12,244 nt of DNA, taken from the IMG/VR virus record IMGVR_UViG_2681813321_000010, one strand, 5' to 3'. Source of the DNA: a virus (taxonomy: Duplodnaviria; Heunggongvirae; Uroviricota; Caudoviricetes). Shown here one piece after another: positions 1 through 12,244 of the stretch. A program made the position numbers and the translations under genes. The notes under the pieces were generated by a model, which ran no database searches, was not told the origin of the DNA, and worked only from the letters and a program-made list of their open reading frames with translations. Position 1 is the stretch's first letter. The number at the start of each line of letters is the position of its first letter.

Positions 1-138
1 TGCCTGGTGCCTCCAGGTGACGTTAACCAGTTAACAATTAACGCCGGATACAGAGAATCCACCCATAACACTGTTTTTGGTTTTAACTGTTCCGCGTGCG
101 CTCAGCCGCATTCACCGCATCACAAAATTCACTTTAAA

Positions 139-193
139 AACGGCGGCAGAGCAGTCACGGAGTAAAACTGATACCGCCAAACGTCACCAGAAA
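139..193 (-). ncRNA. dicF: DicF small RNA, copy 1: an FtsZ-translation-inhibiting sRNA with an intrinsic terminator at its 3' end.
   Basis: The minus-strand sequence is UUUCUGGUGACGUUUGGCGGUAUCAGUUUUACUCCGUGACUGCUCUGCCGCCGUUUUU. This matches my memory of the 53-nt E. coli DicF, apart from a possible 1-nt difference at the 3' end. It lies about 340 nt downstream of ydfC on the same strand, as in K-12 Qin. Confidence 0.8.
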
Positions 194-533
194 ATTGATA
201 ACAGAGGGCGTTGCAGCGGGGTTGTCGCTTAAGCGTATGGTCAACCTGACAACCCGGTGTCCTCAACGGGGAAGGAATAACCCCGCCATACTTACCGCCG
301 CGCCATTTCGCGGAGTGCCACAACCGGAAGCGCACGGTCGACGAAAATTTAACGACAGGCTATCTATGAACCAGCTACCTCGCCGTGCGCTTTCGCGTTA
401 TGGTCTGACTTTTCATGGAAATATCCTTTCAGTAAACTGTCAGTGCCGGATGCTCACCCATGTCCGGCGCACGCACTCCACCTCACCCGTGGAGAACTCC
501 TTAATTACCAACCTTAGCTTCGTTGGTTAGCTA

Positions 534-752
534 TTAACGCGGGTATGTAATCATTCTGGCAATGCTTAATGCCGCTGCTTTTTCCAGCCTGGTGATATCC
601 TGCTCCAGAGCGGACAGATTTTCAGCCTGCTTAGCCCTGGCTTCATTGGCCCATTTCAGATCCTGCGCTGCATTAATTTTCTGGCGCATCCACTCATAAA
701 GTTCATCATCGGTATAGTCTGGCGAGATGATGACGGGTTCTCGTTTCTGCAT
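534..752 (-). CDS. ydfC: YdfC-like small protein (72 aa) from the dicA-ydfABC-dicF operon.
   Basis: 72-aa ORF in the position and with the size of K-12 Qin ydfC, which follows ydfB and precedes dicF. The gene symbol rests on synteny and size, recalled from memory. Confidence 0.65.
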   Translation of the reverse strand: MQKREPVIISPDYTDDELYEWMRQKINAAQDLKWANEARAKQAENLSALEQDITRLEKAAALSIARMITYPR

Positions 753-781
753 ACTGATTCCTCGCGGTGCTGCTTCGCTTA

Positions 782-910
782 TCAGCCGTTAGATTTTGCC
801 GAGCTGGAAAGCGCCTGTTTAAACTCACTGAAGCTGAGAGCTTCTTCGCCTTCGGCAAGGCCTTCGAAGTATTCTTCGTAAGCCTTTTCCATGATTGTGT
901 CGAAATCCAT
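782..910 (-). CDS. ydfB: YdfB-like small protein (42 aa, MDFDTIMEKAYEEYFEGLAEGEEALSFSEFKQALSSSAKSNG).
   Basis: 42-codon ORF below the ORF-track size cut-off, translated by hand. A GGTGAG Shine-Dalgarno sits 5 nt upstream. Its start lies 1 nt from the ydfA stop, a translational-coupling arrangement. Size and synteny match K-12 ydfB. Confidence 0.6.
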   Translation of the reverse strand: MDFDTIMEKAYEEYFEGLAEGEEALSFSEFKQALSSSAKSNG

Positions 911-911
911 A

Positions 912-1067
912 TCACTCACCTGAGTTTCTTTCCAGCCAGCGACGGGCACCATTTTCGGTTTTAAACGTTTTGCTTCTGGTATACGTCATCGCGGTAAACG
1001 TGCCGTCCTGGTTGGGAAACACGCCGTACACCAGAGATTCGTTGTTGCCAAGATCGATAGTATCCAT
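912..1067 (-). CDS. ydfA: YdfA-like small protein (51 aa, MDTIDLGNNESLVYGVFPNQDGTFTAMTYTRSKTFKTENGARRWLERNSGE).
   Basis: An internal ATG preceded by GAGG, giving a 51-aa product that matches K-12 ydfA in length. The ORF-track entry 912..1121 is an N-terminally over-extended version. The gene sits immediately downstream of dicA on the same strand. Confidence 0.65.
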   Translation of the reverse strand: MDTIDLGNNESLVYGVFPNQDGTFTAMTYTRSKTFKTENGARRWLERNSGE

Positions 1068-1147
1068 GCTGACCTCATTTCCCCTTAACGCTGGGGTAGC
1101 GGAACTGTTTGCTGAGAACACCGTGCGGTGTGTTGATGCAAATAAGA

Positions 1148-1199
1148 TTAGCCATGGCTAACATATAGGTCAAGTGATTTTGTATGTTATGGCTAACAT
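1148..1199. promoter_or_regulatory. Operator-like palindromes distal to dicA: TTAGCcatgGCTAA (1148-1161) and ATGTTAtggcTAACAT (1184-1199).
   Basis: Both are exact inverted repeats. The half-site core TTAG(C/T)/(G/A)CTAA recurs in the dicA-dicC intergenic region. Confidence 0.45.
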
Positions 1200-1233
1200 G
1201 ATTGATGTGGTAAAAGATAACTCATTGATGATG

Positions 1234-1641
1234 TTATCTTTTATTTGTCCGCTGACGGGCTTTTAGTAATTCTTCAAAGAGTTTATTGAAGTTTTTTACT
1301 CGAGCTCGCATTTCGGCGAGCTGGGTATCCTGTTCTGATTCTGGCAGTGCATTAAACAGCTCAAGGAGCTCTAGTTCTTTGGGGGATAAGGCAACTGGCT
1401 TCTCAACAGGTGGTGTTGGTTGCTTGTCTTCATCGCCAAATAGAATCCATGTTGGTGAGCATTGCAATACTTTGCTGAGGGCAAAAAGGTTCTTCCCTGT
1501 AGGTTCACTATCATCCCGTTCCCATTGTGATACAGACACATGGGAGATTTTCAGGGCTTTAGCAAGAGACCTTTGGGTGTGTTTGAGGTTTTTCCGACGA
1601 TACCTAATGCGTTCGCCGATAGTTAAATTTTTTGTTTCCAT
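1234..1641 (-). CDS. dicA: DicA repressor. It is an XRE-family HTH protein of 135 aa with no C-terminal S24 autopeptidase domain.
   Basis: The translation METKNLTIGERIRYRRKNLKHTQRSLAKALKISHVSVSQWERDD... is recognised as E. coli DicA. It is transcribed divergently from dicC. Confidence 0.9.
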   Translation of the reverse strand: METKNLTIGERIRYRRKNLKHTQRSLAKALKISHVSVSQWERDDSEPTGKNLFALSKVLQCSPTWILFGDEDKQPTPPVEKPVALSPKELELLELFNALPESEQDTQLAEMRARVKNFNKLFEELLKARQRTNKR

Positions 1642-1643
1642 AG

Positions 1644-1710
1644 TTAGCTAATGCTAAATCGTATTGACTATGTTTTTGTTAACATCTATTTTGTTAGTTA
1701 TGACTAACAA
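1644..1710. promoter_or_regulatory. dicA/dicC divergent control region. Contains palindromes TTAGCtaatGCTAA (1644-1657), TGTTAACA (1674-1681) and the perfect 8+4+8 palindrome TTGTTAGTtatgACTAACAA (1691-1710). Also contains a candidate PdicC: TTGACT (1664-1669), a 17-bp spacer and TATTTT (1687-1692).
   Basis: The inverted repeats and the -35/-10 spacing were read directly from the sequence. The 20-bp palindrome overlaps the -10/+1 of the putative dicC promoter. Confidence 0.5.
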
Positions 1711-1724
1711 TAAAGGTGTTTTAA

Positions 1725-1955
1725 ATGCTTAAAACTGACGCTCTTTTGTATTTCGGTTCAAAAACAAAACTTGCACAAGCAGCAGGTATTCGTTTGGCTT
1801 CGCTTTATAGCTGGAAAGGGGATTTAGTTCCCGAAGGTCGCGCGATGCGTCTACAGGAGGCATCTGGCGGGGAGCTTCAGTATGATCCCAAAGTTTATGA
1901 TGAATATCGTAAGACGAAGCGGGCGGGGCGGTTGAACAATGAAAATCACTCCTGA
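1725..1955 (+). CDS. dicC: DicC, a Cro-like HTH regulator of 76 aa.
   Basis: MLKTDALLYFGSKTKLAQAAGIRLASLYSW... is recognised as DicC. AAAGGTG Shine-Dalgarno upstream. Divergent from dicA. Confidence 0.85.
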   Translation: MLKTDALLYFGSKTKLAQAAGIRLASLYSWKGDLVPEGRAMRLQEASGGELQYDPKVYDEYRKTKRAGRLNNENHS

Positions 1956-2460
1956 ACAGGCTCGTGAGGCTCTGGATGCCTGGATATGTCGACCAGGAAT
2001 GACACAGGAGCAGGCGACGATATTAATCACTGAAGCATTCTGGGCTTTGAAAGAGCGCCCGAACATCGATGTTCAGCGTGTCACAGATGAAGGTGGCGCG
2101 GTTGATCAGCGAGCGCTTGGCGTTAATCGAGTGAAGATATTCGAACGCTGGAAGGCTATCGACACCAGGGATAAGCGTGAAAAGTTCACGGCGCTAGTGC
2201 CTGCGATTATGGAGGCTATCCGGATTAGTGATTTCAGGTTGTATCGTGAGATCAGTGATGGAAAAAGTATTACGTACATGATCGCCGGGTTAAATAAAGA
2301 ATATGGCGATGTGGTGGAATCCGGACTGCTTTTTGCAGATCCTGCCGTTGTAGATCGTGAAACTGACGAACTTATAGAAAAAGCAATTGCTTTCAAGCTT
2401 GCGTATCGACAGCAATACCAACAAAAAGCTGGATGGAATTATGAGTCTTCTTTTTGCTGA
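1939..2460 (+). CDS. ydfX: YdfX-like early-operon protein of 173 aa. It overlaps the dicC stop by 17 nt, which suggests translational coupling. Function unknown; possibly a CII/YdaT-like regulator.
   Basis: Long ORF with a start inside the dicC 3' end, paralogous to 6316..6837. In K-12 a truncated pseudogene, ydfX, directly follows dicC. The symbol rests on that synteny, recalled from memory. Confidence 0.6.
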   Translation: MKITPEQAREALDAWICRPGMTQEQATILITEAFWALKERPNIDVQRVTDEGGAVDQRALGVNRVKIFERWKAIDTRDKREKFTALVPAIMEAIRISDFRLYREISDGKSITYMIAGLNKEYGDVVESGLLFADPAVVDRETDELIEKAIAFKLAYRQQYQQKAGWNYESSFC

Positions 2461-3406
2461 ACGCCCACTGGTTATAAACACGCAGCTGGCAATGAAAATT
2501 GGCTTAAACGAAGCCATTGTTTTGCAACAACTGCACTACTGGTTGAGAGATACCAACTCCGGCATGGAATGTGATGGTGTTCGCTGGATTTATAACACAA
2601 CGGAACAATGGCTGGAACAGTTCCCATTCTGGTCAGAGTCAACGTTAAAGCGCGCGTTTGCAAGTCTGAAAACGCTGGGGCTTTTGCGTTGTGAAAAGCT
2701 CAATAAATCAAAGCGCGATATGACCAATTTCTACACGATCAACTACGGGAGCGAGCTTTTAGATGGTGGCAAATTGAGCGAATCCATCGGTTTAAAATGC
2801 GCCGCTCCATCAGGTCAAAATGACACGATGGAAGAGGTCAAAATGAAACGCTCCATTGGTTCAAAACGACTCAATGTCATCGGGTCAAAATGGCCTGATG
2901 ATCTTACAGAGAATACAACAGAGATTACTACAGAGAATAAAAAGACTTCTCGTCCGGAAGCTTCGCAACCGGACCCGCAGACGGTTGAACAGGATTTTTT
3001 AACCCGACACCCTGACGCGGTTGTGTTCAGTGCGAAAAAACGCCAGTGGGGCAGCCAGGAAGATTTGGCGTGTGCGCAGTGGATCTGGGGGCGAATCGTG
3101 AGTCTTTACGAGCAGGCCGCCAGCGATGATGGCGAGATTTCGCGACCGAAAGAACCCAACTGGACCGCATGGGCCAACGACGTGCGCACAATGCGGATGC
3201 TGGATGGCAGAACTCACAGACAAATTTGTGAAATGTTTGGTCGGGTGCAGCGGGATCCATTCTGGGTAAAAAATATCATGAGTCCGTCAAAGCTTCGCGA
3301 AAAATGGGATGAACTGGTTATCCGCCTGGGGCGTTCGTCTGTACAGCGTTGTGTGAATCATATTTCTGAGCCGGATACCGAAATTCCGCCGGGCTTCAGG
3401 GGGTAA
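2441..3406 (+). CDS. Lambda-O-like replication initiator or replisome organizer (321 aa from ATG 2441). Its N-terminal domain is winged-helix-like, a low-complexity linker is encoded by the iteron array, and a C-terminal domain follows.
   Basis: The ORF track gives a TTG start at 2387, but the ATG at 2441 overlaps the upstream stop by 20 nt and is the likelier start. The N-terminus LVINTQLAMKIGLNEAIVLQQLHYWL is typical of phage replication initiators. The in-gene iterons plus the AT-rich tract mirror the ori inside lambda gene O. Confidence 0.7.
   Translation: MSLLFAERPLVINTQLAMKIGLNEAIVLQQLHYWLRDTNSGMECDGVRWIYNTTEQWLEQFPFWSESTLKRAFASLKTLGLLRCEKLNKSKRDMTNFYTINYGSELLDGGKLSESIGLKCAAPSGQNDTMEEVKMKRSIGSKRLNVIGSKWPDDLTENTTEITTENKKTSRPEASQPDPQTVEQDFLTRHPDAVVFSAKKRQWGSQEDLACAQWIWGRIVSLYEQAASDDGEISRPKEPNWTAWANDVRTMRMLDGRTHRQICEMFGRVQRDPFWVKNIMSPSKLREKWDELVIRLGRSSVQRCVNHISEPDTEIPPGFRG
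2789..2950. repeat. ori-like iteron array inside the O-like gene. Five GGT(C/T)(A/T)AAA(T/C)G repeats with 22-25 bp periodicity (starts 2789, 2813, 2836, 2858, 2883), followed by an AT-rich ACAGAGAATA-repeat tract (2901-2950).
   Basis: Counted directly from the sequence. The encoded protein shows the matching repeats GQN/SIGSKR/VIGSKW. Confidence 0.6.
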
Positions 3407-3446
3407 GTGTTAATTTCTGGTCATGAGGTAATTTTCAGGAGGGCTT

Positions 3447-3869
3447 GTGGCAAAAGTTTTTACACAAGAAGAGCGGGAAAAAATTAAAGGGCAGGTTGTT
3501 GAACTCGTACGCCGGAGTGGGCGTGAGACGTTACGGCAACTGGAAGTCAAGACAGGTGCGACAAGATATCTGATGAGCGTTCTCGCAAGAGAGCTGGTTG
3601 CCAGCGGCGATGTATACAACTCTGGTTACGGGTTATTCCCGTCTGAACAGGCGCGTAAGGACTGGCAAAATGCCCGTAAAAAGCTCTCAAGGGCAAAGCT
3701 GAAGGAACCATCTGCGGTTGATCCGGACCTTATCTGGTCATTACCTGACGGAGAAATACGTCGCTACGACAGGCGTCAGAACATAATCTGTCGCGAGTGC
3801 CGGAAGAGTGAAGTTATGCAGCGCATACTAGCATTCTATCAGGGAAATGCTCGATATTTATTGAAGTGA
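3447..3869 (+). CDS. Conserved 140-aa protein downstream of the O-like gene. GTG start; function unknown. It occupies the position where a helicase loader (P/DnaC-like) would be expected.
   Basis: AGGAGGG Shine-Dalgarno 6 nt upstream of the GTG. Paralogue 7824..8231 is about 90% identical. Basic C-terminus with a single CxxC. Confidence 0.6.
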   Translation: MAKVFTQEEREKIKGQVVELVRRSGRETLRQLEVKTGATRYLMSVLARELVASGDVYNSGYGLFPSEQARKDWQNARKKLSRAKLKEPSAVDPDLIWSLPDGEIRRYDRRQNIICRECRKSEVMQRILAFYQGNARYLLK

Positions 3870-4121
3870 TGAGATTAAAGTTTATTAGTTCAGATATTGA
3901 TTGGCTCTTTTGTGGAGTAGGGTAGAGTTAGTGTGTTTGTCTGCTTGGTGCCAGCAGCGGATATGTTTAACAACAGAAAGCATTCAGCATGGTTAGTGGA
4001 TTTGCAAAGTGGATTAGGATTTGAGAAACTTTGATGAAGTTGTAAAGCTTGTTTCTATAAAAATAGAAATTTAACTAATAGTTAAACACACCTCCAGCTT
4101 CATTGAAAAGGATTATTAGCT

Positions 4122-4547
4122 ATGATTGATCCACTTATTAGAAACTTACAGAGTGATATTGCACTACTCCAGCTTTATATCGCGCAACGCAAACAGGCAG
4201 GCTTTCATGACATGGAAAGAATAATTGAGTCATTGACCATCTTTATGTTTCGCGCGCTGAAAATGGGTGAACTGGTAAACATGAATCAGATTAAAGTTAA
4301 TTTTCCCGCCATTGATTTAGCTGATAATAAAAACATGATAGCAGTTCAAGTTACTACGAATGCAAGTCCAGCAAAAATTAAAAAAACTATCGAATCTTTT
4401 GAGAAAATAAATGAAATAGGAGAGAGTCTGAAAGATAAATACTCTACTTTATATATTTTTGGTTTTAACTGTTCCGCGTGCGCTCAGCCGCATTCACCGC
4501 ATCACAAAATTCACTTTAAAAACGGCGGCAGAGCAGTCACGGAGTAA
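4122..4547 (+). CDS. AT-rich 141-aa ORF, possibly a truncated or chimeric N-terminal domain of an abortive-infection-type protein. It tentatively resembles a SMEK-type N-terminal domain. The last ~30 codons are encoded by the direct repeat.
   Basis: AAGGA Shine-Dalgarno 9 nt upstream. GC content is visibly far below the flanking sequence. The region from 4456 onward is shared with 74-165, where a different upstream reading frame fuses to the same tail FGFNCSACAQPHSPHHKIHFKNGGRAVTE. The stop codon lies inside the DicF copy-2 terminator on the opposite strand. Confidence 0.5.
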   Translation: MIDPLIRNLQSDIALLQLYIAQRKQAGFHDMERIIESLTIFMFRALKMGELVNMNQIKVNFPAIDLADNKNMIAVQVTTNASPAKIKKTIESFEKINEIGESLKDKYSTLYIFGFNCSACAQPHSPHHKIHFKNGGRAVTE

Positions 4548-4575
4548 AACTGATACCGCCAAACGTCACCAGAAA
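4521..4575 (-). ncRNA. dicF: DicF small RNA, copy 2. Identical to copy 1.
   Basis: Same sequence as 139-193, offset 4382. Confidence 0.8.
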
Positions 4576-4915
4576 ATTGATAACAGAGGGCGTTGCAGCG
4601 GGGTTGTCGCTTAAGCGTATGGTCAACCTGACAACCCGGTGTCCTCAACGGGGAAGGAATAACCCCGCCATACTTACCGCCGCGCCATTTCGCGGAGTGC
4701 CACAACCGGAAGCGCACGGTCGACGAAAATTTAACGACAGGCTATCTATGAACCAGCTACCTCGCCGTGCGCTTTCGCGTTATGGTCTGACTTTTCATGG
4801 AAATATCCTTTCAGTAAACTGTCAGTGCCGGATGCTCACCCATGTCCGGCGCACGCACTCCACCTCACCCGTGGAGAACTCCTTAATTACCAACCTTAGC
4901 TTCGTTGGTTAGCTA

Positions 4916-5134
4916 TTAACGCGGGTATGTAATCATTCTGGCAATGCTTAATGCCGCTGCTTTTTCCAGCCTGGTGATATCCTGCTCCAGAGCGGACAGA
5001 TTTTCAGCCTGCTTAGCCCTGGCTTCATTGGCCCATTTCAGATCCTGCGCTGCATTAATTTTCTGGCGCATCCACTCATAAAGTTCATCATCGGTATAGT
5101 CTGGCGAGATGATGACGGGTTCTCGTTTCTGCAT
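4916..5134 (-). CDS. ydfC: YdfC-like protein, copy 2. Identical to copy 1.
   Basis: Identical translation to 534..752. Confidence 0.65.
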   Translation of the reverse strand: MQKREPVIISPDYTDDELYEWMRQKINAAQDLKWANEARAKQAENLSALEQDITRLEKAAALSIARMITYPR

Positions 5135-5163
5135 ACTGATTCCTCGCGGTGCTGCTTCGCTTA

Positions 5164-5292
5164 TCAGCCGTTAGATTTTGCCGAGCTGGAAAGCGCCTGT
5201 TTAAACTCACTGAAGCTGAGAGCTTCTTCGCCTTCGGCAAGGCCTTCGAAGTATTCTTCGTAAGCCTTTTCCATGATTGTGTCGAAATCCAT
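5164..5292 (-). CDS. ydfB: YdfB-like 42-aa protein, copy 2.
   Basis: Offset copy of 782..910. Confidence 0.6.
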   Translation of the reverse strand: MDFDTIMEKAYEEYFEGLAEGEEALSFSEFKQALSSSAKSNG

Positions 5293-5293
5293 A

Positions 5294-5449
5294 TCACTCA
5301 CCTGAGTTTCTTTCCAGCCAGCGACGGGCACCATTTTCGGTTTTAAACGTTTTGCTTCTGGTATACGTCATCGCGGTAAACGTGCCGTCCTGGTTGGGAA
5401 ACACGCCGCATACCAGAGATTCGTTGTTGCCAAGATCGATAGTATTCAT
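5294..5449 (-). CDS. ydfA: YdfA-like 51-aa protein, copy 2 (D2N and Y14C relative to copy 1).
   Basis: Offset copy of 912..1067. The two amino-acid differences fall in the substitution cluster near the repeat boundary. Confidence 0.65.
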   Translation of the reverse strand: MNTIDLGNNESLVCGVFPNQDGTFTAMTYTRSKTFKTENGARRWLERNSGE

Positions 5450-5561
5450 GCTGACCTCATTTCCCCTTAACGCCGGGGTAGCGGAACTGTTTGCTGAGAA
5501 CACCGTGCGGTGTCTTGGTGGAGATTAATTTAGAATAACCTAACAAATGTAGCAAGTATTT

Positions 5562-5581
5562 TTGTTAGATTGGTCTAACAA
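5562..5581. promoter_or_regulatory. Operator-like 8+4+8 palindrome TTGTTAGAttggTCTAACAA distal to dicA'. An additional CCTAACAA half-site lies at 5539-5546.
   Basis: Exact inverted repeat. It has the same architecture as the module-A sites but different specificity positions (GA/TC instead of GT/AC). Confidence 0.45.
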
Positions 5582-5616
5582 AAAGAGTGAGGGAATCTAA
5601 GTATCTGAAAGGAGTG

Positions 5617-6024
5617 TTATTTTATTGATTTGTTTTTACGTGCTTTAAGCATTTCTTCGAAGAGTTTATTGAAATTCTCTACTCTTGCGCGCATTTCAGA
5701 CAGTAAGGCTTCCTGCTCGGAGGAGGGAAGAGCATCGAATAATTCGATCAATTCTTTGTGGCTGGGAGTTAACTCGGTTTCCACATGAAGTTCTTGTGCT
5801 GGCACTGGTGCCTTGTCTTCGTCACCAAACATTAGCCATGTAGGCGAGCACTTCAGCGCATCAGCTAAAGCAAATAACCGCTTCCCGACCGGTTGGGTTT
5901 CGTCTCTTTCCCATTGTGAAATTGTGACGTGAGCTACCCCAGCGAGGCGTGCAGCTTCTCGTTGTGTTAGGCGTAATTCTTTTCGTCGTGCCAGAACTCG
6001 CTGGCCTAGGGTTCTTGTATCCAT
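5617..6024 (-). CDS. Second, hetero-immune DicA-type repressor (135 aa). It has a different HTH recognition region and is about 55% identical to DicA.
   Basis: MDTRTLGQRVLARRKELRLTQREAARLAGVAHVTISQWERDE... shows the same domain layout and C-terminal half as DicA. The N-terminal DNA-binding half is substituted. Confidence 0.85.
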   Translation of the reverse strand: MDTRTLGQRVLARRKELRLTQREAARLAGVAHVTISQWERDETQPVGKRLFALADALKCSPTWLMFGDEDKAPVPAQELHVETELTPSHKELIELFDALPSSEQEALLSEMRARVENFNKLFEEMLKARKNKSIK

Positions 6025-6047
6025 AGTTAGGTAATTCTAATTTTTCT

Positions 6048-6092
6048 TGACTTAGGTATCCCGCGCACATTACTGTTAGGAATATCTAACAA
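6048..6092. promoter_or_regulatory. dicA'/dicC' control region. Contains a candidate -35 TTGACT (6048-6053) and the imperfect 8+4+8 palindrome cTGTTAGGaataTCTAACAa (6073-6092), directly upstream of the dicC' GAGGGGG Shine-Dalgarno.
   Basis: Read from the sequence. 6 of 8 arm positions are complementary. Confidence 0.4.
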
Positions 6093-6104
6093 GAGGGGGC
6101 TTTG

Positions 6105-6332
6105 ATGCTTAAAGTTGACGCAATTACTTTTTTTGGCAGCAAAACAAAACTTGCCAATGCCGCAGGAGTGAAACTGGCAAGTGTTGCTGCATGGGGGGAA
6201 CTGGTTCCTGAAGGTCGCGCGATGCGCCTGCAAGAGGCATCCGGCGGGGAACTTCAGTACGACCCCAAAGTTTATGACGAATATCGTAAGGCAAAGCGGG
6301 CGGGGCGGTTGAACAATGAAAATCACCCCTGA
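6105..6332 (+). CDS. Second DicC/Cro-like regulator (75 aa from the ATG at 6105). Its N-terminal HTH is diverged and its C-terminal half is identical to DicC.
   Basis: GAGGGGG Shine-Dalgarno. The ORF-track start at 6102 is a TTG one codon upstream. Confidence 0.8.
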   Translation: MLKVDAITFFGSKTKLANAAGVKLASVAAWGELVPEGRAMRLQEASGGELQYDPKVYDEYRKAKRAGRLNNENHP

Positions 6333-6837
6333 ACAGGTTTGTGAGGCTCTGGATGCCTGGGTATGCCGACCAGGAATGACACAGGAGCAGGCGACGATAT
6401 TAATCACGGAAGCATTCTGGGCTCTGAAAGAACGCCCGAACATCGATGTTCAACGCGTCACGTTTAATGATGGCGAGGTTGATCAACGGGCGTTGGGCGT
6501 TAACCGGGTGAAGATATTCGAACGCTGGAAAGCTATCGACACCAGGGATAAGCGGGAAAAATTCACGGCGCTGATTCCGGCAATTATGGAGGCTATCCGG
6601 ATCAGCGATTTCAGGTTGTATTGTGAAATTACTGACGGAAAAAGCATTACGTACATGATCGCCGGGTTAAACAAAGAATATGGTGATGTGGTGGAGTCCG
6701 GGCTGCTTTTTGCGGATCCATCTGTTGTGGAACGTGAGACTGACGAGCTTATAGAAAAAGCTATTGCTTTCAAGCATGCGTATCGTCAGCAATACCAACA
6801 AAAAGCTGGATGGAATTATGAGCCTTCTTTTTGCTGA
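6316..6837 (+). CDS. ydfX: YdfX-like 173-aa protein, module B. It overlaps the dicC' stop by 17 nt, as in module A.
   Basis: About 90% identical to 1939..2460. Confidence 0.6.
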   Translation: MKITPEQVCEALDAWVCRPGMTQEQATILITEAFWALKERPNIDVQRVTFNDGEVDQRALGVNRVKIFERWKAIDTRDKREKFTALIPAIMEAIRISDFRLYCEITDGKSITYMIAGLNKEYGDVVESGLLFADPSVVERETDELIEKAIAFKHAYRQQYQQKAGWNYEPSFC

Positions 6838-7783
6838 ACGCCCACTGGTTATAAACACACAGCTTGCGATGAAGATTGGCTTAAATGAAGCCATTGTGTT
6901 GCAGCAGTTGCATTACTGGTTGAGAGATACCAGTTCCGGTATGGAATGTGACGGGGTTCGCTGGATTTATAACACAACAGAACAATGGCTGGAACAGTTC
7001 CCGTTCTGGTCAGAGTCAACGTTAAAACGCGCATTTGCAAGTCTGAAAACGCTGGGGCTTTTGCGTTGCGAAAAGCTCAACAAATCAAAGCGTGATATGA
7101 CTAATTTTTACACGATTAATTACGAGAGTGAGCTTTTAGATGGTGGCAAAGTGAGCGAATCCATCAGGTCAAAATGCGCCGCTCCATCGGGTCAAAATGA
7201 CACGATGGAAGAGGTCAAAATGGCACGCTCCATTGGTTCAAAACGACCCAATGTCATCGGGTCAAAATGGCCTGATGATCTTACAGAGAATACAACAGAG
7301 ATTACTACAGAGAATAAAAACACTTCTCGTCCGGAAGCTTCGCAACCGGACCCGCAGACGGCTGAACAGGATTTTTTAACCCGACACCCTGACGCGGTTG
7401 TGTTCAGTGCGAAAAAACGCCAGTGGGGAAGTCAGGAAGATTTGGCGTGCGCACAGTGGATCTGGGGACGAATCGTGAGTCTTTACGAGCAGGCTGCCAG
7501 CGATGATGGCGAGATCACGCGACCGAAAGAACCAAACTGGACCGCATGGGCCAATGACGTGCGCACAATGCGGATGCTGGATGGCAGAAGCCACAGACAA
7601 ATTTGCGAAATGTTTGGTCGGGTACAGCGAGATCCATTCTGGGTAAAAAACATCATGAGCCCGTCAAAGCTTCGCGAAAAATGGGACGACCTGGTCATCC
7701 GCCTGGGGCGTTCACCTGTACAGTGTTGTGTGAATCATATTTCTGAACCGGATACCGAAATTCCGCCTGGTTTCAGGGGATAA
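6818..7783 (+). CDS. O-like replication initiator, module B (321 aa from ATG 6818).
   Basis: Paralogue of 2441..3406 with the same overlapping start context. Confidence 0.7.
   Translation: MSLLFAERPLVINTQLAMKIGLNEAIVLQQLHYWLRDTSSGMECDGVRWIYNTTEQWLEQFPFWSESTLKRAFASLKTLGLLRCEKLNKSKRDMTNFYTINYESELLDGGKVSESIRSKCAAPSGQNDTMEEVKMARSIGSKRPNVIGSKWPDDLTENTTEITTENKNTSRPEASQPDPQTAEQDFLTRHPDAVVFSAKKRQWGSQEDLACAQWIWGRIVSLYEQAASDDGEITRPKEPNWTAWANDVRTMRMLDGRSHRQICEMFGRVQRDPFWVKNIMSPSKLREKWDDLVIRLGRSPVQCCVNHISEPDTEIPPGFRG
7167..7327. repeat. ori-like iteron array, module B. Five GGT(C/T)CAAAA(T/C)G repeats (starts 7167, 7190, 7213, 7235, 7260) followed by an AT-rich ACAGAGAATA tract.
   Basis: Counted directly. 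Same periodicity as module A. Confidence 0.6.
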
Positions 7784-7823
7784 GTGGTGATTTTAGGGCA
7801 TAAAGTAATGTTCAGGAGGACTT

Positions 7824-8231
7824 ATGGCAAAAGTATTTACACAGGAAGAGCGGGAAAAAATTAAAGGACAGGTGGTGGAACTCGTGCGCCAGAGCGGTCG
7901 TGAGACGTTACGGCAACTGGAAGCTAAAACAGGTGCGACAAGATATCTGATGAGCGTTCTTGCCAGAGAGCTGGTTGCCAGTGGTGATGTATATCACTCT
8001 GGCTATGGGGTGTTCCCGTCAGAACGGGCTCGTAAGGACTGGCAAAACGCCCGCAAAAAACTCTCGAGGGCAAAGGTGAAGAAACCTGTTGTGGTTGATC
8101 CGGGCCTTATCTGGACATTACCCGACGGAGAAATACGCCGCTACGACAGGCGTATGAACATAATCTGTCGCGAGTGCCGGAAGAGCGAAGTTATGCAGCG
8201 TGTATTGGCGTTCTATCAGGGATATGCCTAG
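7824..8231 (+). CDS. Conserved 135-aa protein downstream of the O-like gene, module B.
   Basis: AGGAGGA Shine-Dalgarno. Paralogue of 3447..3869 with a shorter C-terminus. Confidence 0.6.
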   Translation: MAKVFTQEEREKIKGQVVELVRQSGRETLRQLEAKTGATRYLMSVLARELVASGDVYHSGYGVFPSERARKDWQNARKKLSRAKVKKPVVVDPGLIWTLPDGEIRRYDRRMNIICRECRKSEVMQRVLAFYQGYA

Positions 8232-8277
8232 AATTGTCACAGGTAATGAAATTAAAGAGTATTGGTTCGGATATGAA

Positions 8278-8307
8278 TTGACATTTTCGCGGCACAGAGC
8301 TAAAAAT
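8278..8307 (+). promoter_or_regulatory. Candidate sigma70 promoter at the start of the AT-rich island: TTGACA (8278-8283), a 17-bp spacer and TAAAAAT.
   Basis: Consensus -35 with canonical spacing, read from the sequence. It would give a ~300-nt leader before the SIR2-family ORF. Confidence 0.3.
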
Positions 8308-8599
8308 AGCCTACTTGTTGGTTTTGTGTGAAAAGCAGACATTTTGAGGCTCAGGATTTGTTATCAAATAAGACCAATACTTATCTATATTAATACACAT
8401 TAAATACTGTGCAATACATTATTGCATTTTATTAGATAAGCGATATTTAGGGAAAAGAAAAGTCATAGAAAACAGGCCGCTATTTGTTGTTGGATTTTAT
8501 AGGCTATATCTAGATTATCTTGCCACTGCGGTCTCTGTTTACCTAACAGCTTGGGCTTCTTTGCATGCAAGTTTGTAATAACAAGAGTAATCAAACGGA

Positions 8600-9631
8600 A
8601 TGTCTATTAATCCTAAACTTAAGCGTATCGCGCGACGCTATCCAGCGTTATTCCAATATGAGTCCCCCTATATGGCAAGAAAATTAATAATATTCGGCAA
8701 CGGTCTCGGTATGGCTTTAGATCCTGCTCACTTCTCCTTAGACAGAGCGTTGGAAGAAATTTGGCATCGCCCCAATTTTTTAAAAGATATCCACAAGCAA
8801 CTTATCGAGCGTTGTCTTCAGCGGCAAGGTCCACCAGAAGGAGAACATGAGTTGGATACCCTTCACCAGGCTGTCACATATTGTAAAGCTCTTGCTCAAA
8901 TTGGAGAGGGGAACGTGCATTGGCTTACTGAAGATGGACTAAACTTCCCCAAAATTACCGCCACTTATATTCACAAAGTTGCAACCAGGTTGCATAATTA
9001 CGATAAAGGTTTGCCACAAAGATTCGAAAATGCGCTTGTGGAGTTTGTAAAGAACACACACTCACATATCGCGACATTAAACTATGACAAATTATTATAC
9101 AATTCATTCATAGATAATGATATATTCAACGGGTATGATGGGGTTTTAGTTGATGGGATGCTAAGCCACGGATTTTCCTCTGCAGCGCTCGAACGGAAAT
9201 ACAATCGTAGGTTTGGTTATTATTTGCACTTGCATGGTTCACCACTATTTATTAATCAGCATGAAAATGTTTTAAAACTTTCACGCTCACAACTTACTCT
9301 TGACATAGATGAACCTAGTGAGCATATAGTGTTAACTCATATAAAAAGAAAACCGTCAGTTATAGCAGCATCTAATGTTCTTTCTACGTACTGGGATTAT
9401 TTGCAGTTTGCATTATTTGAATCAGAAGAAATAATATTGTTTGGTTACTCTGGTCTCGATATTCACCTTAACCTGCTTATTCGACCTTACCTAACCTCTA
9501 AGCCTTTAAGAGTAATTGAGTGGAGCGGTGCTGGTGAACAAAACGCTCGTGAGATATATTGGAAAAACCAGTTGAGACGGGAAGTTACTGTAATTAGGTT
9601 GGATAACATCACTGATTTTATTGATTGGTAG
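8600..9631 (+). CDS. Stand-alone SIR2-family (SIR2_2/ThsA-like NAD+-hydrolase fold) protein of 343 aa in an AT-rich island. Candidate anti-phage defence effector.
   Basis: Motifs seen in the translation: LIIFGNGLGMAL (Rossmann-like N-terminal loop), IATLNYD (the TTNYD-type catalytic Asn motif), YLHLHGS (catalytic His motif) and ILFGYSGLD (the FxGYSxxD motif). GC content is clearly lower than in the flanking phage genes. No SLOG, TIR, STAND or HerA partner is encoded nearby. Confidence 0.75.
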   Translation: MSINPKLKRIARRYPALFQYESPYMARKLIIFGNGLGMALDPAHFSLDRALEEIWHRPNFLKDIHKQLIERCLQRQGPPEGEHELDTLHQAVTYCKALAQIGEGNVHWLTEDGLNFPKITATYIHKVATRLHNYDKGLPQRFENALVEFVKNTHSHIATLNYDKLLYNSFIDNDIFNGYDGVLVDGMLSHGFSSAALERKYNRRFGYYLHLHGSPLFINQHENVLKLSRSQLTLDIDEPSEHIVLTHIKRKPSVIAASNVLSTYWDYLQFALFESEEIILFGYSGLDIHLNLLIRPYLTSKPLRVIEWSGAGEQNAREIYWKNQLRREVTVIRLDNITDFIDW

Positions 9632-9701
9632 CGCAATGCGAAGTTAAAGAGGCAGCCTCATATTTATCAGAGCTGGTGTACGTCCAATACAGGAGGTTAT
9701 C

Positions 9702-9791
9702 GTGCTGGTTCTCAAATGCGCGCTGGCTATTGCGGCTGTAGTGGCAATTTATTGTCTTGCTATTGTTCTTATGGATCGCCTTTCTGATTGA
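9702..9791 (+). CDS. Putative 29-aa hydrophobic single-TM peptide (MLVLKCALAIAAVVAIYCLAIVLMDRLSD). GTG start.
   Basis: Consensus AGGAGG 7 nt upstream of the GTG. The product has uniform hydrophobic composition and charged ends. It was not in the ORF track because it is below the size cut-off. Confidence 0.35.
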   Translation: MLVLKCALAIAAVVAIYCLAIVLMDRLSD

Positions 9792-10002
9792 TTTTATATT
9801 GGCGAGGTGACGGGAGTTAAGTAGAATTGCTGCGGGTGCTTGAGGCTGTCTGCCTCGGGCATGCCACCGTAAGGCAGACAGAGAAAAGCCCCAGTTAACA
9901 TTACGCGTCCTGCAAGACGCTTAACATTAATCTGAGGCCCAATCTATGCTTCACAAACGTAGGTTAGCCTCTTACGCGCCGAAAGGCAAGGAGAAGCAGG
10001 CT

Positions 10003-10158
10003 ATGAAGCAGCAAAAGGCGATGTTAATCGCCCTGATCGTCATCTGTTTAACCGTCATAGTGACGGCACTGGTAACGAGGAAAGACCTCTGCGAGGTACG
10101 AATCCGAACCGGCCAGACGGAGGTCGCTGTCTTCACAGCTTACGAACCTGAGGAGTAA
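10003..10158 (+). CDS. hokD: HokD (RelF), a Hok/Gef-family type I toxin of 51 aa. An in-frame upstream start at 9946 gives a 70-codon mok-like reading frame.
   Basis: MKQQKAMLIALIVICLTVIVTALVTRKDLCEVRIRTGQTEVAVFTAYEPEE is recognised as the Hok family and specifically HokD. AAGGAG Shine-Dalgarno. The leader contains a 10-bp-stem hairpin (9846-9881) typical of hok mRNAs. Confidence 0.85.
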   Translation: MKQQKAMLIALIVICLTVIVTALVTRKDLCEVRIRTGQTEVAVFTAYEPEE

Positions 10159-10226
10159 GAGACCAGGCGGGGGAGAAATCCCTCGCCACCGCTGATGTGT
10201 CAGGCATCCTCAACGCACCCGCACTT

Positions 10227-10258
10227 AACCCGCTTCGGCGGGTTTTTGTTTTTATTTT
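10227..10258 (+). terminator. Rho-independent terminator of the hokD transcript.
   Basis: CCCGC-TTCG-GCGGG stem-loop followed by TTTTTGTTTTTATTTT. Confidence 0.8.
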
Positions 10259-10374
10259 CAACGCATTTGAAGTTCTGGACGGTGTCGGAATAGAATCAAA
10301 AATACTTAAGTAGCGCGCAGGGATAAGAGGGATGGTCCCTTAAAGGGGAGAGCTAATTATCCGGAAGGATTCTG

Positions 10375-10626
10375 ATGATGAACATCGAAGAACTGCGTAA
10401 AATTTTTTGTGAAGATGGCCTCTATGCTGTGTGCGTTGAAAATGGAAATATTGTTAGTCATTACCGCATTGTGTGTTTGCGAAAGAATGGGGCTGCGTTA
10501 ATTAATTTTGTGGATGGTCGAGTGACAGACGGATTTATCTTGCGCGAAGGTGAGTTTGTCACTTCATTACAGGCACTGAAAGAGATCGGAATAAAAGCTG
10601 GCTTTTCTGCTTTTTCAGAAGAATAA
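10375..10626 (+). CDS. rem: Rem-like 83-aa protein.
   Basis: Size and position (between hokD and ydfU) match K-12 Qin rem. GGAAGG Shine-Dalgarno. The symbol rests on synteny and length, recalled from memory. Confidence 0.6.
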   Translation: MMNIEELRKIFCEDGLYAVCVENGNIVSHYRIVCLRKNGAALINFVDGRVTDGFILREGEFVTSLQALKEIGIKAGFSAFSEE

Positions 10627-10692
10627 ACTCATCTACAATCTTGCGCGGGGCTGAACTCCCGCTGAGTAACACCGTGCCGCCGGAGGAAACCG

Positions 10693-10971
10693 ATGGCACG
10701 CAACGCAAAATATTACAATCATGATAATTCGACCGTTCTTGCCCACACGCACGAGCGGTATTCTCACGCATTTAAGTCAGACTGGTACCAGCATCCCCCA
10801 TGCACTGAAGAACAGGCCGAATGGCTCATTCAGTGTTACCGCAGGCGCGGATGCGAGGTTAAAAAAGCCCTTAGCCTCGACTACCGTCACTGGATAATCT
10901 CCGTCGGGCTTCCTTACTCCGAACGCCCACCGCGTCTGTCCCGCACATTCCAGCAACGCATCTGGAGGTAA
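10693..10971 (+). CDS. Hypothetical 92-aa protein, translationally coupled to the downstream DUF968 gene.
   Basis: GGAGGA Shine-Dalgarno 5 nt upstream. The stop lies 1 nt before the next gene's start. Confidence 0.55.
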   Translation: MARNAKYYNHDNSTVLAHTHERYSHAFKSDWYQHPPCTEEQAEWLIQCYRRRGCEVKKALSLDYRHWIISVGLPYSERPPRLSRTFQQRIWR

Positions 10972-10972
10972 C

Positions 10973-12022
10973 GTGCGGGTATTACTTCGACCTGTTCTGG
11001 TACCGGAACTCGGGCTGGTGGTCCTTAAGCCCGGTCGCGAATCACTGCCGGTTTTTCATTGCGGCAGGGTGCTGGTGGAGCCGGAACCGAAAAGCATGCG
11101 CGGTCTGCCGTCCGGAGTCGTCCCTGCCGTTCGCCAGCCGCTGGCGGAGGATAAATCATTACTGCCATTTTTCAGCGATGAGCGTGTGATTCGTGCTGCT
11201 GGCGGCGCTGGCGCACTGTCTGACTGGCTCCTGCGTCATGTCAAATCCTGCCAGTGGCCTCATGGTGACTACCATCACAGTGAAACCGTCATACATCGTT
11301 ATGGTACCGGCGCAATGGTGTTGTGCTGGCACTGCGACAACCAGCTGCGCGACCAGACCTCCGAATCACTCGGGCAACTTGCTCACCAAAACCTGTCTGC
11401 ATGGATGATTGACGTCATACGCCATGCAATGAATGGCTCGCAGGAACGGGAATTATCGCTGGCTGAATTATCCTGGTGGGCGATCCGCAATCAGGTGGCG
11501 GACGCGCTACCGGAAGCGGTATTACGTCGTTCGCTGGGGTTGCGTGCGGAAAAAATCCGCTCAATGTACCGTGAAAGCGACATCGTACCGGGAGAGCAGA
11601 CCGCCACCAGCATACTGAAACAGCGCACAAAAAATCTTGCGCCGCTGCCTCACGCCCACCAGCAACAGAACCCGCCACAGGAAAAGACGGTGGTCAGCAT
11701 TGCTGTTGATCCGGAGTCTCCGGAATCTTTAATGAAGCGACCTAAACGTCGCCGTTGGGTAAATGAGAAATATACGCGCTGGGTAAAGACACAGCCGTGT
11801 GCGTGTTGTGGTAAGCCAGCCGACGATCCCCATCACCTGATTGGTCATGGTCAGGGCGGAATAGGGACAAAAGCCCACGATATTTTCACGCTACCGTTGT
11901 GCCGGGAGCATCACAACGAACTTCATGCTGATCCGCTGGCATTTGAAGAAAAGCATGGTTCCCAGATTGATTTAATTTTTCGTTTTCTTGATCGCGCCTT
12001 TGCAACCGGCGTGCTCGGGTAA
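10973..12022 (+). CDS. ydfU: DUF968-family lambdoid protein (YdfU/YdaW-like, 349 aa) with a C-terminal Cys/His-rich HNH-like motif.
   Basis: C-terminus CACCGKPADDPHHLIGHGQGG...LCREHHNELH. GGAGG Shine-Dalgarno before the GTG. Length and synteny with rem and hokD match Qin ydfU. Confidence 0.75.
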   Translation: MRVLLRPVLVPELGLVVLKPGRESLPVFHCGRVLVEPEPKSMRGLPSGVVPAVRQPLAEDKSLLPFFSDERVIRAAGGAGALSDWLLRHVKSCQWPHGDYHHSETVIHRYGTGAMVLCWHCDNQLRDQTSESLGQLAHQNLSAWMIDVIRHAMNGSQERELSLAELSWWAIRNQVADALPEAVLRRSLGLRAEKIRSMYRESDIVPGEQTATSILKQRTKNLAPLPHAHQQQNPPQEKTVVSIAVDPESPESLMKRPKRRRWVNEKYTRWVKTQPCACCGKPADDPHHLIGHGQGGIGTKAHDIFTLPLCREHHNELHADPLAFEEKHGSQIDLIFRFLDRAFATGVLG

Positions 12023-12034
12023 AAGAGGTTACTG

Positions 12035-12244
12035 ATGCGTATAGAGTTTGTTTTGCCTTACCCGCCGACGGTGAACACCTACTGGCGACGTCGTGGCAGC
12101 ACATATTTTGTGTCAAAAGCCGGTGAGCGTTATCGCCGGGATGTGGCACTTATTGTTCGCCAGCAGCGGCTGAAATTAAACCTGTCCGGAAGGCTGGCGA
12201 TAAAGATTATTGCAGAGCCACCGGATAAGCGCCGCCGCGACCTG
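12035..12244 (+). CDS. rusA: RusA-family Holliday-junction resolvase, 5' partial. It runs off the window end.
   Basis: LPYPPTVNTYW...YRRDVALIV...IKIIAEPPDKRRRDL matches the RusA pattern, including the PDxRRRDLDN motif. AAGAGG Shine-Dalgarno. Confidence 0.8.
   Translation, partial: MRIEFVLPYPPTVNTYWRRRGSTYFVSKAGERYRRDVALIVRQQRLKLNLSGRLAIKIIAEPPDKRRRDL

Follow-up and report, generated by a model that had tools for sequence, protein, structure and literature searches.

The stretch of DNA analysed here (12,244 nucleotides (nt) from the virus record IMGVR_UViG_2681813321_000010 of the Caudoviricetes, hereafter the window) carries two copies of a DicA/DicC immunity and replication module of the type known from the Qin prophage of Escherichia coli. 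A unit of about 3.8 kb is present twice in direct orientation, at 74–3897 and 4456–8274, and in each unit the gene order is the same: the small RNA DicF, ydfCBA and the repressor gene dicA on one side of the control region, and dicC, a YdaT-like gene, an O-like gene and DUF977 on the other. The copies lie 4.38 kb from each other, with 558 nt in between that include a truncated SMEK gene. The window is probably a B/A/B chimera, that is, a recombinant lambdoid (Qin/mEp460-like) prophage formed from two resident prophages, of recent origin and representing an unstable intermediate.

Tandem units and their probable parental prophages

The tandem of two direct units described in an earlier note on this DNA is readily seen when the window is compared with itself by BLAST. 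The left arms (74–1135 against 4456–5517) are 99.5% identical, with five mismatches at positions 1027, 1029, 1064, 1092 and 1132 and complete identity over 953 nt (74–1026); the identical left block reported earlier exists, with a measured length of 953 nt instead of 930 bp. The right arms (1818–3897 against 6195–8274) share 90.1% identity over 2083 nt, in agreement with the value of about 90% given before for the replication genes. The two aligned arms are separated by a block of about 680 nt in which only 60 nt at the 3′ end of dicA can be aligned; dicA, the operators and the 5′ end of dicC are about 60% identical between the copies, as against 90% for the replication genes. At the protein level, YdfC and YdfB are 100% identical between the copies, YdfA 97%, the YdaT-like protein 92%, the O-like protein 95.6% and DUF977 86%. 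DicA, estimated previously at about 55%, is 58% identical by BLASTP and 56% in a global alignment, and DicC is 82–83% identical with its divergence confined to the first 31 or so residues. The gene labelled ‘ydfX’ before is here a full-length YdaT/CII-like one.

Both halves of the window are found in E. coli O111:H2 12A and in FDAARGOS_1059, in each case as two separate prophages annotated as complete-looking elements of the same chromosome (L001 and L002 denote the B and A prophages of 12A, L003 and L004 the A and B prophages of FDAARGOS_1059). The type A prophage lies at tRNA-Ser/mtfA and has the canonical dicA/dicC, with SMEK and methyltransferase genes downstream. The type B prophage lies beside yccA and has a variant DicA, with SIR2, hokD, rem and DUF968 downstream. 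Over its 7789 nt, segment 4456–12244 of the window matches the B prophage of 12A at 100.000% identity, and it differs by one mismatch from that of FDAARGOS_1059. Positions 1027–4466 have no mismatch to the FDAARGOS_1059 A prophage and one, at position 1710, to that of 12A. Finally, positions 1–1026 have no mismatch to the B arm, and differ from the A arm by 25 substitutions and one indel, all between 117 and 1002. The resulting layout is B (up to 1026), A (1027 to 4466) and B (from 4456).

Since each copy is 99.97–100% identical to a separate and widespread prophage, the joining is recent and the divergence between the copies was inherited. The three levels of identity, already recognized as mosaicism and not as a simple duplication with later divergence, are ordinary lambdoid mosaicism that is older than the tandem; only the joining is new. 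Taken singly, both immunity types are common, the A-specific region being present in 851 and the B-specific region in 566 of 5,426 complete E. coli genomes, and 4112 blocks of the collection contain the type B DicA protein. In other prophages the dicB-dicF-ydfCBA arm adjoins S24-type CI, helix-turn-helix/ParE and DicA-type cassettes. At loci L010–L019, the neighbours of the 51-residue YdfA and its arm include no fewer than three unrelated types of repressor (a 238-residue S24-peptidase CI, a 166-residue helix-turn-helix protein with PaaA2/ParE, and DicA). Because one arm adjoins several unrelated repressor types, the ydfA/dicBp boundary is a recurrent mosaic joint.

The features of the window are as follows.

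1–73, minus strand: dicB–dicF spacer of the left arm, outside the repeat; equal to 6001–6073 of L001 and 5401–5473 of L002
74–84: left-arm copy of the 11-nt microhomology TTTTTGGTTTT, at the left boundary of the repeat unit
141–192, minus strand: DicF small RNA, copy 1 (Rfam RF00039, 72.5 bits, E 9e-15)
534–1067, minus strand: copy 1 of ydfC (534–752), ydfB (782–910) and ydfA/DUF1391 (912–1067), mapped from the RefSeq annotation of L001
1146–1198: predicted dicBp-side (PL-like) operators of module A, found by pattern search, GATTAGCCATGGCTAACA (1146–1163) and TGTATGTTATGGCTAACA (1181–1198)
1234–1641, minus strand: dicA type A, canonical Qin/K-12 form, 135 residues (NCBIfam NF007257, 235.6 bits)
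1642–1724: dicA–dicC control region of module A, with a weak site (1642–1659) and Oc (1691–1710)
1725–1955, plus strand: dicC type A, Cro analogue (Pfam P22_Cro; NCBIfam NF007282, 159.5 bits)
1939–2460, plus strand: YdaT/CII-like regulator, copy A, 173 residues (Pfam YdaT_toxin; PHROG 163 ‘CII-like transcriptional activator’, 2e-40)
2441–3406, plus strand: O-like initiator, copy A (PHROG 391, 5e-95), with iterons at 2785–2900
3447–3869, plus strand: DUF977/Ren-like gene, copy A (Pfam DUF977, 2e-30; PHROG 142)
4122–4547, plus strand: SMEK-domain gene, truncated, with about 115 codons of A-prophage origin and 26 from the spacer (Pfam SMEK_N)
4456–4466: joint J2, TTTTTGGTTTT, located by comparing parental and chimeric sequences
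4523–4574, minus strand: DicF small RNA, copy 2, with no dicB downstream (Rfam RF00039, 72.5 bits)
4916–5449, minus strand: ydfC, ydfB and ydfA, copy 2, B-type
5528–5580: predicted dicBp-side operators of module B, ATTTAGAATAACCTAACA (5528–5545) and TGTTAGATTGGTCTAACA (5563–5580)
5617–6024, minus strand: dicA type B, 135 residues (NCBIfam NF007257, 224 bits)
6025–6104: dicA–dicC control region of module B, with a weak site (6025–6042) and the Oc homologue TGTTAGGAATATCTAACA (6074–6091)
6105–6332, plus strand: dicC type B (NCBIfam NF007282, 166.7 bits; Pfam P22_Cro)
6316–6837, plus strand: YdaT/CII-like regulator, copy B, 92% identical to copy A
6818–7783, plus strand: O-like initiator, copy B, with five iterons at 7162–7277
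7824–8231, plus strand: DUF977, copy B; the repeat ends at 8274
10375–10626, plus strand: rem, the DicA antirepressor (RefSeq ‘protein Rem’)

DicA and DicC of both copies pass the NCBIfam cut-offs (101 bits for NF007257 and 130 bits for NF007282), and a short helix-turn-helix repressor of the DicA family (NF007257; Pfam HTH_3) is present in each module. DicA-A differs from K-12-type DicA at one of 135 residues, and its gene carries the RefSeq name dicA in L002 and L003. Of the dicBF operon, both copies have DicF and ydfABC; the dicB gene of copy 1 lies just to the left of the window in the parents (annotated at 5778–5966 of L001), and copy 2 has none. The O-like protein and Rem matched no Pfam or NCBIfam family, and were assigned by PHROGs and RefSeq annotation.

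The joints J1 and J2

The left joint, J1, lies within ydfA in the interval 1003–1026, bounded by the last B-diagnostic site at 1002 and the first A-diagnostic site at 1027. Judged from these sites, B-type sequence passes into A-type by a homologous crossover in the left arm, which is 97% identical between A and B, about 110 nt ahead of the end of the A/B homology of this arm. The YdfA protein of copy 1 is an A/B hybrid whose nucleotides are B-type up to 1026. The hybrid protein was considered as a marker of J1 and dropped, its 51-residue sequence being common (417 blocks) and found beside many unrelated immunity cassettes.

At the second joint, J2, the end points of the parental BLAST matches overlap by exactly the 11 nt TTTTTGGTTTT at 4456–4466, a sequence common to the SMEK gene of the A prophage and the dicB–dicF spacer of the B prophage. 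The SMEK parent reads ...TATATATTTTTGGTTTTTGTAAAG, the B parent ...ACACTGTTTTTGGTTTTAACTG and the window ...TATATATTTTTGGTTTTAACTG. The SMEK gene, which is intact in L002 (9523–10422, 299 residues), is cut by J2 to about 115 codons (Pfam SMEK_N, model positions 2–102 of 140), and the open reading frame that results (4122–4547) would encode 141 residues, composed of the SMEK N-terminal fragment and 26 residues from the dicB–dicF spacer. The frame of this 26-residue tail is also open at 7–165. On the other side, J2 at 4456 cuts after dicF and leaves the second dicBF operon without dicB. A direct repeat, a novel microhomology joint and identifiable parents are all present, as expected of a tandem duplication by unequal or illegitimate recombination. 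In the intact A prophage, TTTTTGGTTTT also occurs as a direct repeat 4.38 kb apart, at 5474–5484 and 9857–9867 of L002 (corresponding to 74–84 and 4456–4466 of the window), so that the A prophage alone could delete or duplicate the whole immunity and replication block by the same short-homology mechanism.

Neither joint has been found elsewhere. By BLAST, a query spanning J2 had no place with at least 80% coverage in the 5,426 complete E. coli genomes, nor in 50,697 phage records or 72,556 plasmids. Exact patterns of 46, 35 and 28 nt across J2 (the shortest being TTTATATATTTTTGGTTTTAACTGTTCC) had no match in the viral, species-representative and metagenome collections, and an exact look-up of the SMEK fusion frame in the protein collection returned no record. 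Positions 1–1760 are present at 100% in none of the complete genomes (the best match is 99.3%), and hence J1 is also new. The whole window matches thousands of E. coli genomes; the best coverage, 90%, comes from genomes with a single module, and these matches span only 7.86 kb of chromosome, i.e. one module. No complete genome has the A-type and B-type regions together in one place, and 20 further contexts of YdfA and DicA-B (10 of them of the exact DicA-B protein) are all single-module.

Operators, repressors and replication functions

According to the earlier note, the two modules were hetero-immune, all operator palindromes having been substituted. A search of the window for TGTTAG-N6-CTAACA with up to three mismatches gave 11 sites against 4.4 expected, and none of 200 shuffles gave as many as 11. 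Eight of these are predicted operators with the same layout in each module, two on the dicBp side (35 nt apart) and two in the dicA–dicC spacer (49–50 nt apart); the promoter dicBp sits upstream of ydfA (PMC10448788). The site in the dicA–dicC spacer of module A is exactly the K-12 operator Oc, TTGTTAGTCATAACTAACAA (PMC3441716), and a predicted operator of the form TGTTAG-N6-CTAACA occupies the homologous position in module B. Position 1710, where window segment 1027–4466 shows its only difference from the A prophage of 12A, forms the outer end of the Oc palindrome, which is perfect in FDAARGOS_1059 and in the window; the 12A base represents a natural operator polymorphism. In the same control region of module A there is a promoter-like TTGACT-17-TATTTT (1664–1692). 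It was the only such site, dicCp-like, given by a consensus promoter scan, which was uninformative for module B and for dicBp. Of the palindromes quoted in support of substitution, both exist, TTGTTAGTTATGACTAACAA at 1691–1710 and TTGTTAGATTGGTCTAACAA at 5562–5581, but they are not homologous operators: the former is the dicA–dicC site (Oc) of module A and the latter a dicBp-side (PL-side) site of module B.

All eight operators share the TGTTAG-N6-CTAACA core. Between the modules, the outer hexamers are identical at 43 of 48 positions and the central hexamers at 8 of 24 (counted by the author of the analysis from the operator sites found), and the surrounding regulatory DNA is 61–62% identical. 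Substitution thus holds for the central six nucleotides and not for the outer hexamers, which are conserved. The sole experimentally known binding-defective mutation of Oc, an A-to-C change that abolishes binding of DicA (PMC3441716), falls in a hexamer conserved in both modules. The recognition helices of the two repressors are nearly identical as well (SHVSVSQWERD in A, AHVTISQWERD in B). The closest solved structure to the N-terminal domain of DicA is the P22 c2 repressor (E 8e-20), in which the outer TTAA motif is read by Val33 and Gln37 (PMC5175364); both types of DicA retain Val and Gln at the aligned positions. In DicA homologues with clearly different operators, the outer half-site and the helix-turn-helix both differ, as for PPompW and a Klebsiella phage with CCTTAG/CTAAGG operators, and for mEp460_ev081 with the operator ATTGAG..CTCAAT and the helix SGSSISLWESD; neither feature sets A apart from B. 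Consequently, neither the difference in recognition helix nor the difference in outer half-site that would mark a hetero-immune pair was found. The conserved hexamers, the near-identical helices and the co-variation of operator and helix-turn-helix within the family argue against strict hetero-immunity, and cross-recognition by the two DicA proteins appears more likely. Immunity to two phage types, as suggested further, would bring no advantage over related strains, which already carry both modules in separate prophages.

Several points weigh against cross-recognition. The two DicA proteins are only 58% identical overall, the central spacer differs in every operator, and the helix-turn-helix region of DicC also differs (RLASLYSW against KLASVAAW). 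In systems of the 434/P22 type, differences in the central spacer can strongly shift the affinity of the repressor, so that partial specificity is possible. In addition, at least two sequenced strains harbour both A and B, each as a prophage of its own, a situation that hetero-immunity would facilitate. In favour of a shared specificity, on the other hand, genomes with both types number 23 against about 89 expected under independence (union of 1394 genomes); this approximately fourfold deficit is suggestive at best, since phylogeny and competition for integration sites are confounding factors. The A-type region occurs twice in 22 genomes, and the B-type region never does in the 566 genomes that carry it. 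As a side observation, a single genome can contain as many as 10 copies of the shared dicF-ydfCBA arm; the immunity cassettes look mutually limiting, and the arms freely multi-copy.

Downstream of the immunity genes, each module has the O-like initiator of a lambda-type O/ori replicon, with the iterons inside the gene of the initiator. The O-like protein (321 residues) matches PHROG 391, ‘replication initiation O-like’ (5e-95), and five 23-nt iterons are found within each O gene (2785–2900 and 7162–7277), nearly the same in both and with the common core GGTCAAAATG. That each module has its own O-like initiator and ori iterons, as had been proposed, is true of their position; in sequence, the two initiators share 95.6% identity and the iterons hardly differ. 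By this similarity, what is present is one replicon type and specificity in two copies, and not two specificities. A P-like helicase loader was not found adjacent to O, where only the DUF977/Ren-like gene follows; Phage_lambda_P is present in related prophages whose replication modules are of other kinds.

The rem gene is present in a single copy contributed by the B prophage. Its product matches K-12-type Rem at 80 of 84 aligned positions (83 residues and the stop), and Rem has been shown experimentally to be an antirepressor of K-12 DicA (PMC10448788). An identical Rem is found beside K-12-type DicA (L016, 1343–1594) and beside DicA-B (L020, 2102–2353), which hints that one Rem antirepressor serves both types of DicA and counts in favour of a shared specificity.

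Between DUF977 and hokD lies a variable cargo site. In the window it holds a SIR2-family gene at 8600–9631 (RefSeq start 8672; Pfam SIR2_2, with weak PADLOC matches to SIR2 models), in the A prophage SMEK, methyltransferase and hypothetical genes (L002, 9523–12098), and in other DicA-B prophages KwaA/KwaB (Kiwa) or a Beta_protein gene (L020 and L025, 3000–5000). The slot looks like a hotspot of anti-phage defence. Downstream of SIR2 there is a hok/sok type I toxin–antitoxin locus (9834–10158; Rfam sok, 116 bits), with the hokD coding sequence at 10003–10158.

Proposed origin, alternatives and known systems

In the proposed sequence of events, an ancestor very close to 12A and FDAARGOS_1059 would have carried the A and B prophages separately. 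A segment of 3.44 kb of A, from ydfA to the first third of SMEK, would then have come to lie in B together with a second copy of the dicF-ydfCBA arm of B, J2 being formed through the 11 nt by short-homology illegitimate recombination or template switching. This could have happened by two routes. In one, A and B would have undergone an unequal illegitimate exchange, located in SMEK for A and in the dicB–dicF spacer for B, after which the first left arm would have been converted to the sequence of the second. In the other, two template switches during repair or replication would have led from B to A by homology in ydfA, and from A back to B by the 11-nt microhomology. Campbell-type integration of a circle was considered and rejected, and so was a single reciprocal inversion between A and B through their homologous arms: either event should have left A-type polymorphisms in the second left arm, and 4456–5517 is purely B-type.

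Each DicA protein, by binding TGTTAG-N6-CTAACA, would probably repress the dicC and dicB-type promoters of its own module and of the other. The outcome would be redundant repression and not two independent immunities, a single Rem probably relieving both, and the second dicBF copy would be a source of DicF without DicB. Direct repeats of 953 nt (identical) and 2.1 kb (90%) should make the structure unstable: recombination between the left arms would yield a pure B prophage, and recombination between the right arms a B prophage carrying the A immunity cassette. From these predicted products, the tandem looks like a transient intermediate of immunity-cassette exchange. If real, it would be a snapshot of lambdoid immunity-cassette swapping through an unstable two-switch intermediate. 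It would also provide a natural test bed for whether DicA proteins of 58% identity cross-recognize operators with the same outer half-sites and a different spacer, and for whether one Rem serves both.

The reading of the window as a recent chimera has to be weighed against other explanations. An old duplication in place, followed by divergence of the repressor region and homogenization of the left arms, would account for the direct-repeat arrangement and the identical left arms. However, each copy matches a different extant prophage at 99.97–100%, both immunity types are widespread singly (851 and 566 genomes), and about 60% identity adjoining 100% cannot come from divergence in place; refuted by the parental matches and by the map of polymorphisms in the left arms, this explanation deserves practically no credence. 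An artefact of assembly or of the library is less likely than the recombinant prophage but has an appreciable chance of being correct; the chimera would then be false, with A and B separate in the source genome and joined only in the contig, either because a scaffolder or gap-closer had merged contig ends that overlap by 11 nt or through template-switched chimeric molecules. In favour of it are the absence of the joint and of its fusion frame from the collections searched, the near-complete identity of both parts to separate prophages of sequenced relatives, and the 953-nt exact repeat, a structure that assemblers handle badly; J2, moreover, rests on one sequence. On the other hand, two independent clean joints would both need to be errors. 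J1 lies in a stretch of 24 nt bounded by diagnostic polymorphisms, shorter than the k-mers that assemblers usually employ, and mis-threading of the graph through 12A-like arms is therefore unlikely. The B-type polymorphisms also continue as far as the edge of the A-specific region, where reads anchored in immA would have given the reverse, and an 11-nt microhomology is a classic signature of genuine illegitimate recombination at short homology. The chimera remains the probable reading, with some reservations: the two routes, of two steps each, are equally economical, and cross-repression, the action of Rem on DicA-B and instability are inferred.

An improbable alternative, the idea of the earlier note, is a functional, selected dual-immunity prophage, whose DicA paralogues would have distinct operator specificities owing to differences in spacer, flanking bases and DicC. 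DicA-A would control the left early genes together with DicB and DicF-1, and DicA-B would control DicF-2 and the right early and late genes. The bistable double switch that was also suggested is speculative. The 58% identity of the DicA proteins, the differing helix-turn-helix region of DicC, the different central six nucleotides of every operator and the co-residence of A and B prophages in 12A and FDAARGOS_1059 are consistent with this. The conserved outer hexamers and recognition helix speak against it, as do the co-occurrence of A and B at about one-fourth of the expectation under independence, and the fact that relatives with separate prophages already have both repressors; a unique structure that is 99.97–100% identical to its parents has, furthermore, had no time for selection. 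There is a similarly slim chance of a two-repressor lock, in which the two DicA proteins, set apart by operator spacers and by their DicC partners, would act separately, DicA-A gating the left arm (dicB, DicF-1, recombination and int) and DicA-B the right arm (replication, late genes and DicF-2). If this were true, induction and the division arrest by DicF and DicB would need both switches, and a natural AND-gated lysis–lysogeny circuit would have arisen from one recombination step.

Several known systems can be compared with the recombinant prophage proposed here. The P22 c2 repressor (Protein Data Bank entries 2R1J and 1ADR) recognizes an 18-bp operator with contacted outer half-sites of 6 nt and an indirectly read centre, consensus ATTTAAGATATCTTAAAT (PMC5175364). 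The half-site of DicA is TGTTAG, that of P22 ATTTAAG, and DicA, unlike c2, is short (135 residues), without a RecA-dependent cleavage site and controlled by an antirepressor (PMC10448788). In the Stx2 phage and PPompW (PMC8112680), two related lambdoid genomes, each with a DicA-type repressor, are likewise adjacent; those are whole prophages joined at att by integrase, whereas here internal segments of 3.8 kb are joined inside a gene. Tandem polylysogeny was rejected for the window, since the 558 nt between the copies contain no att site, integrase or full prophage length. Module A is the same system as the Qin cryptic prophage of E. coli K-12 (dicA-dicC, dicBp-ydfABC-dicF-dicB, rem), regulated there by DicA, DicC and Rem (PMC10448788), and has the same gene order. 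It differs from Qin in having intact YdaT-like, O-like and DUF977 genes, and in being followed by a second, diverged unit instead of the remaining prophage. Module B and its flank belong to the type B lambdoid prophages (the 12A yccA-site prophage and the MN652886 ‘Rac’ fragment), positions 4456–12244 being identical to the yccA-site prophage of 12A. Elsewhere these prophages have the same operator core and usually rem, with one B-type immunity region per genome in the 566 genomes. A mechanistic parallel is offered by the tandem duplications, imm hybrids and bio/gal transducing phages of lambda, where unequal exchange at about 10 nt of homology gives an unstable direct duplication of immunity and replication functions. 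Compared with the lambda duplications, the partners here are different prophages, making the duplication heterologous, and there is a second, homologous joint, J1. The window holds no new kind of system: all its components are known and widespread prophage parts, and it is a rare recombinant that is mechanistically ordinary.

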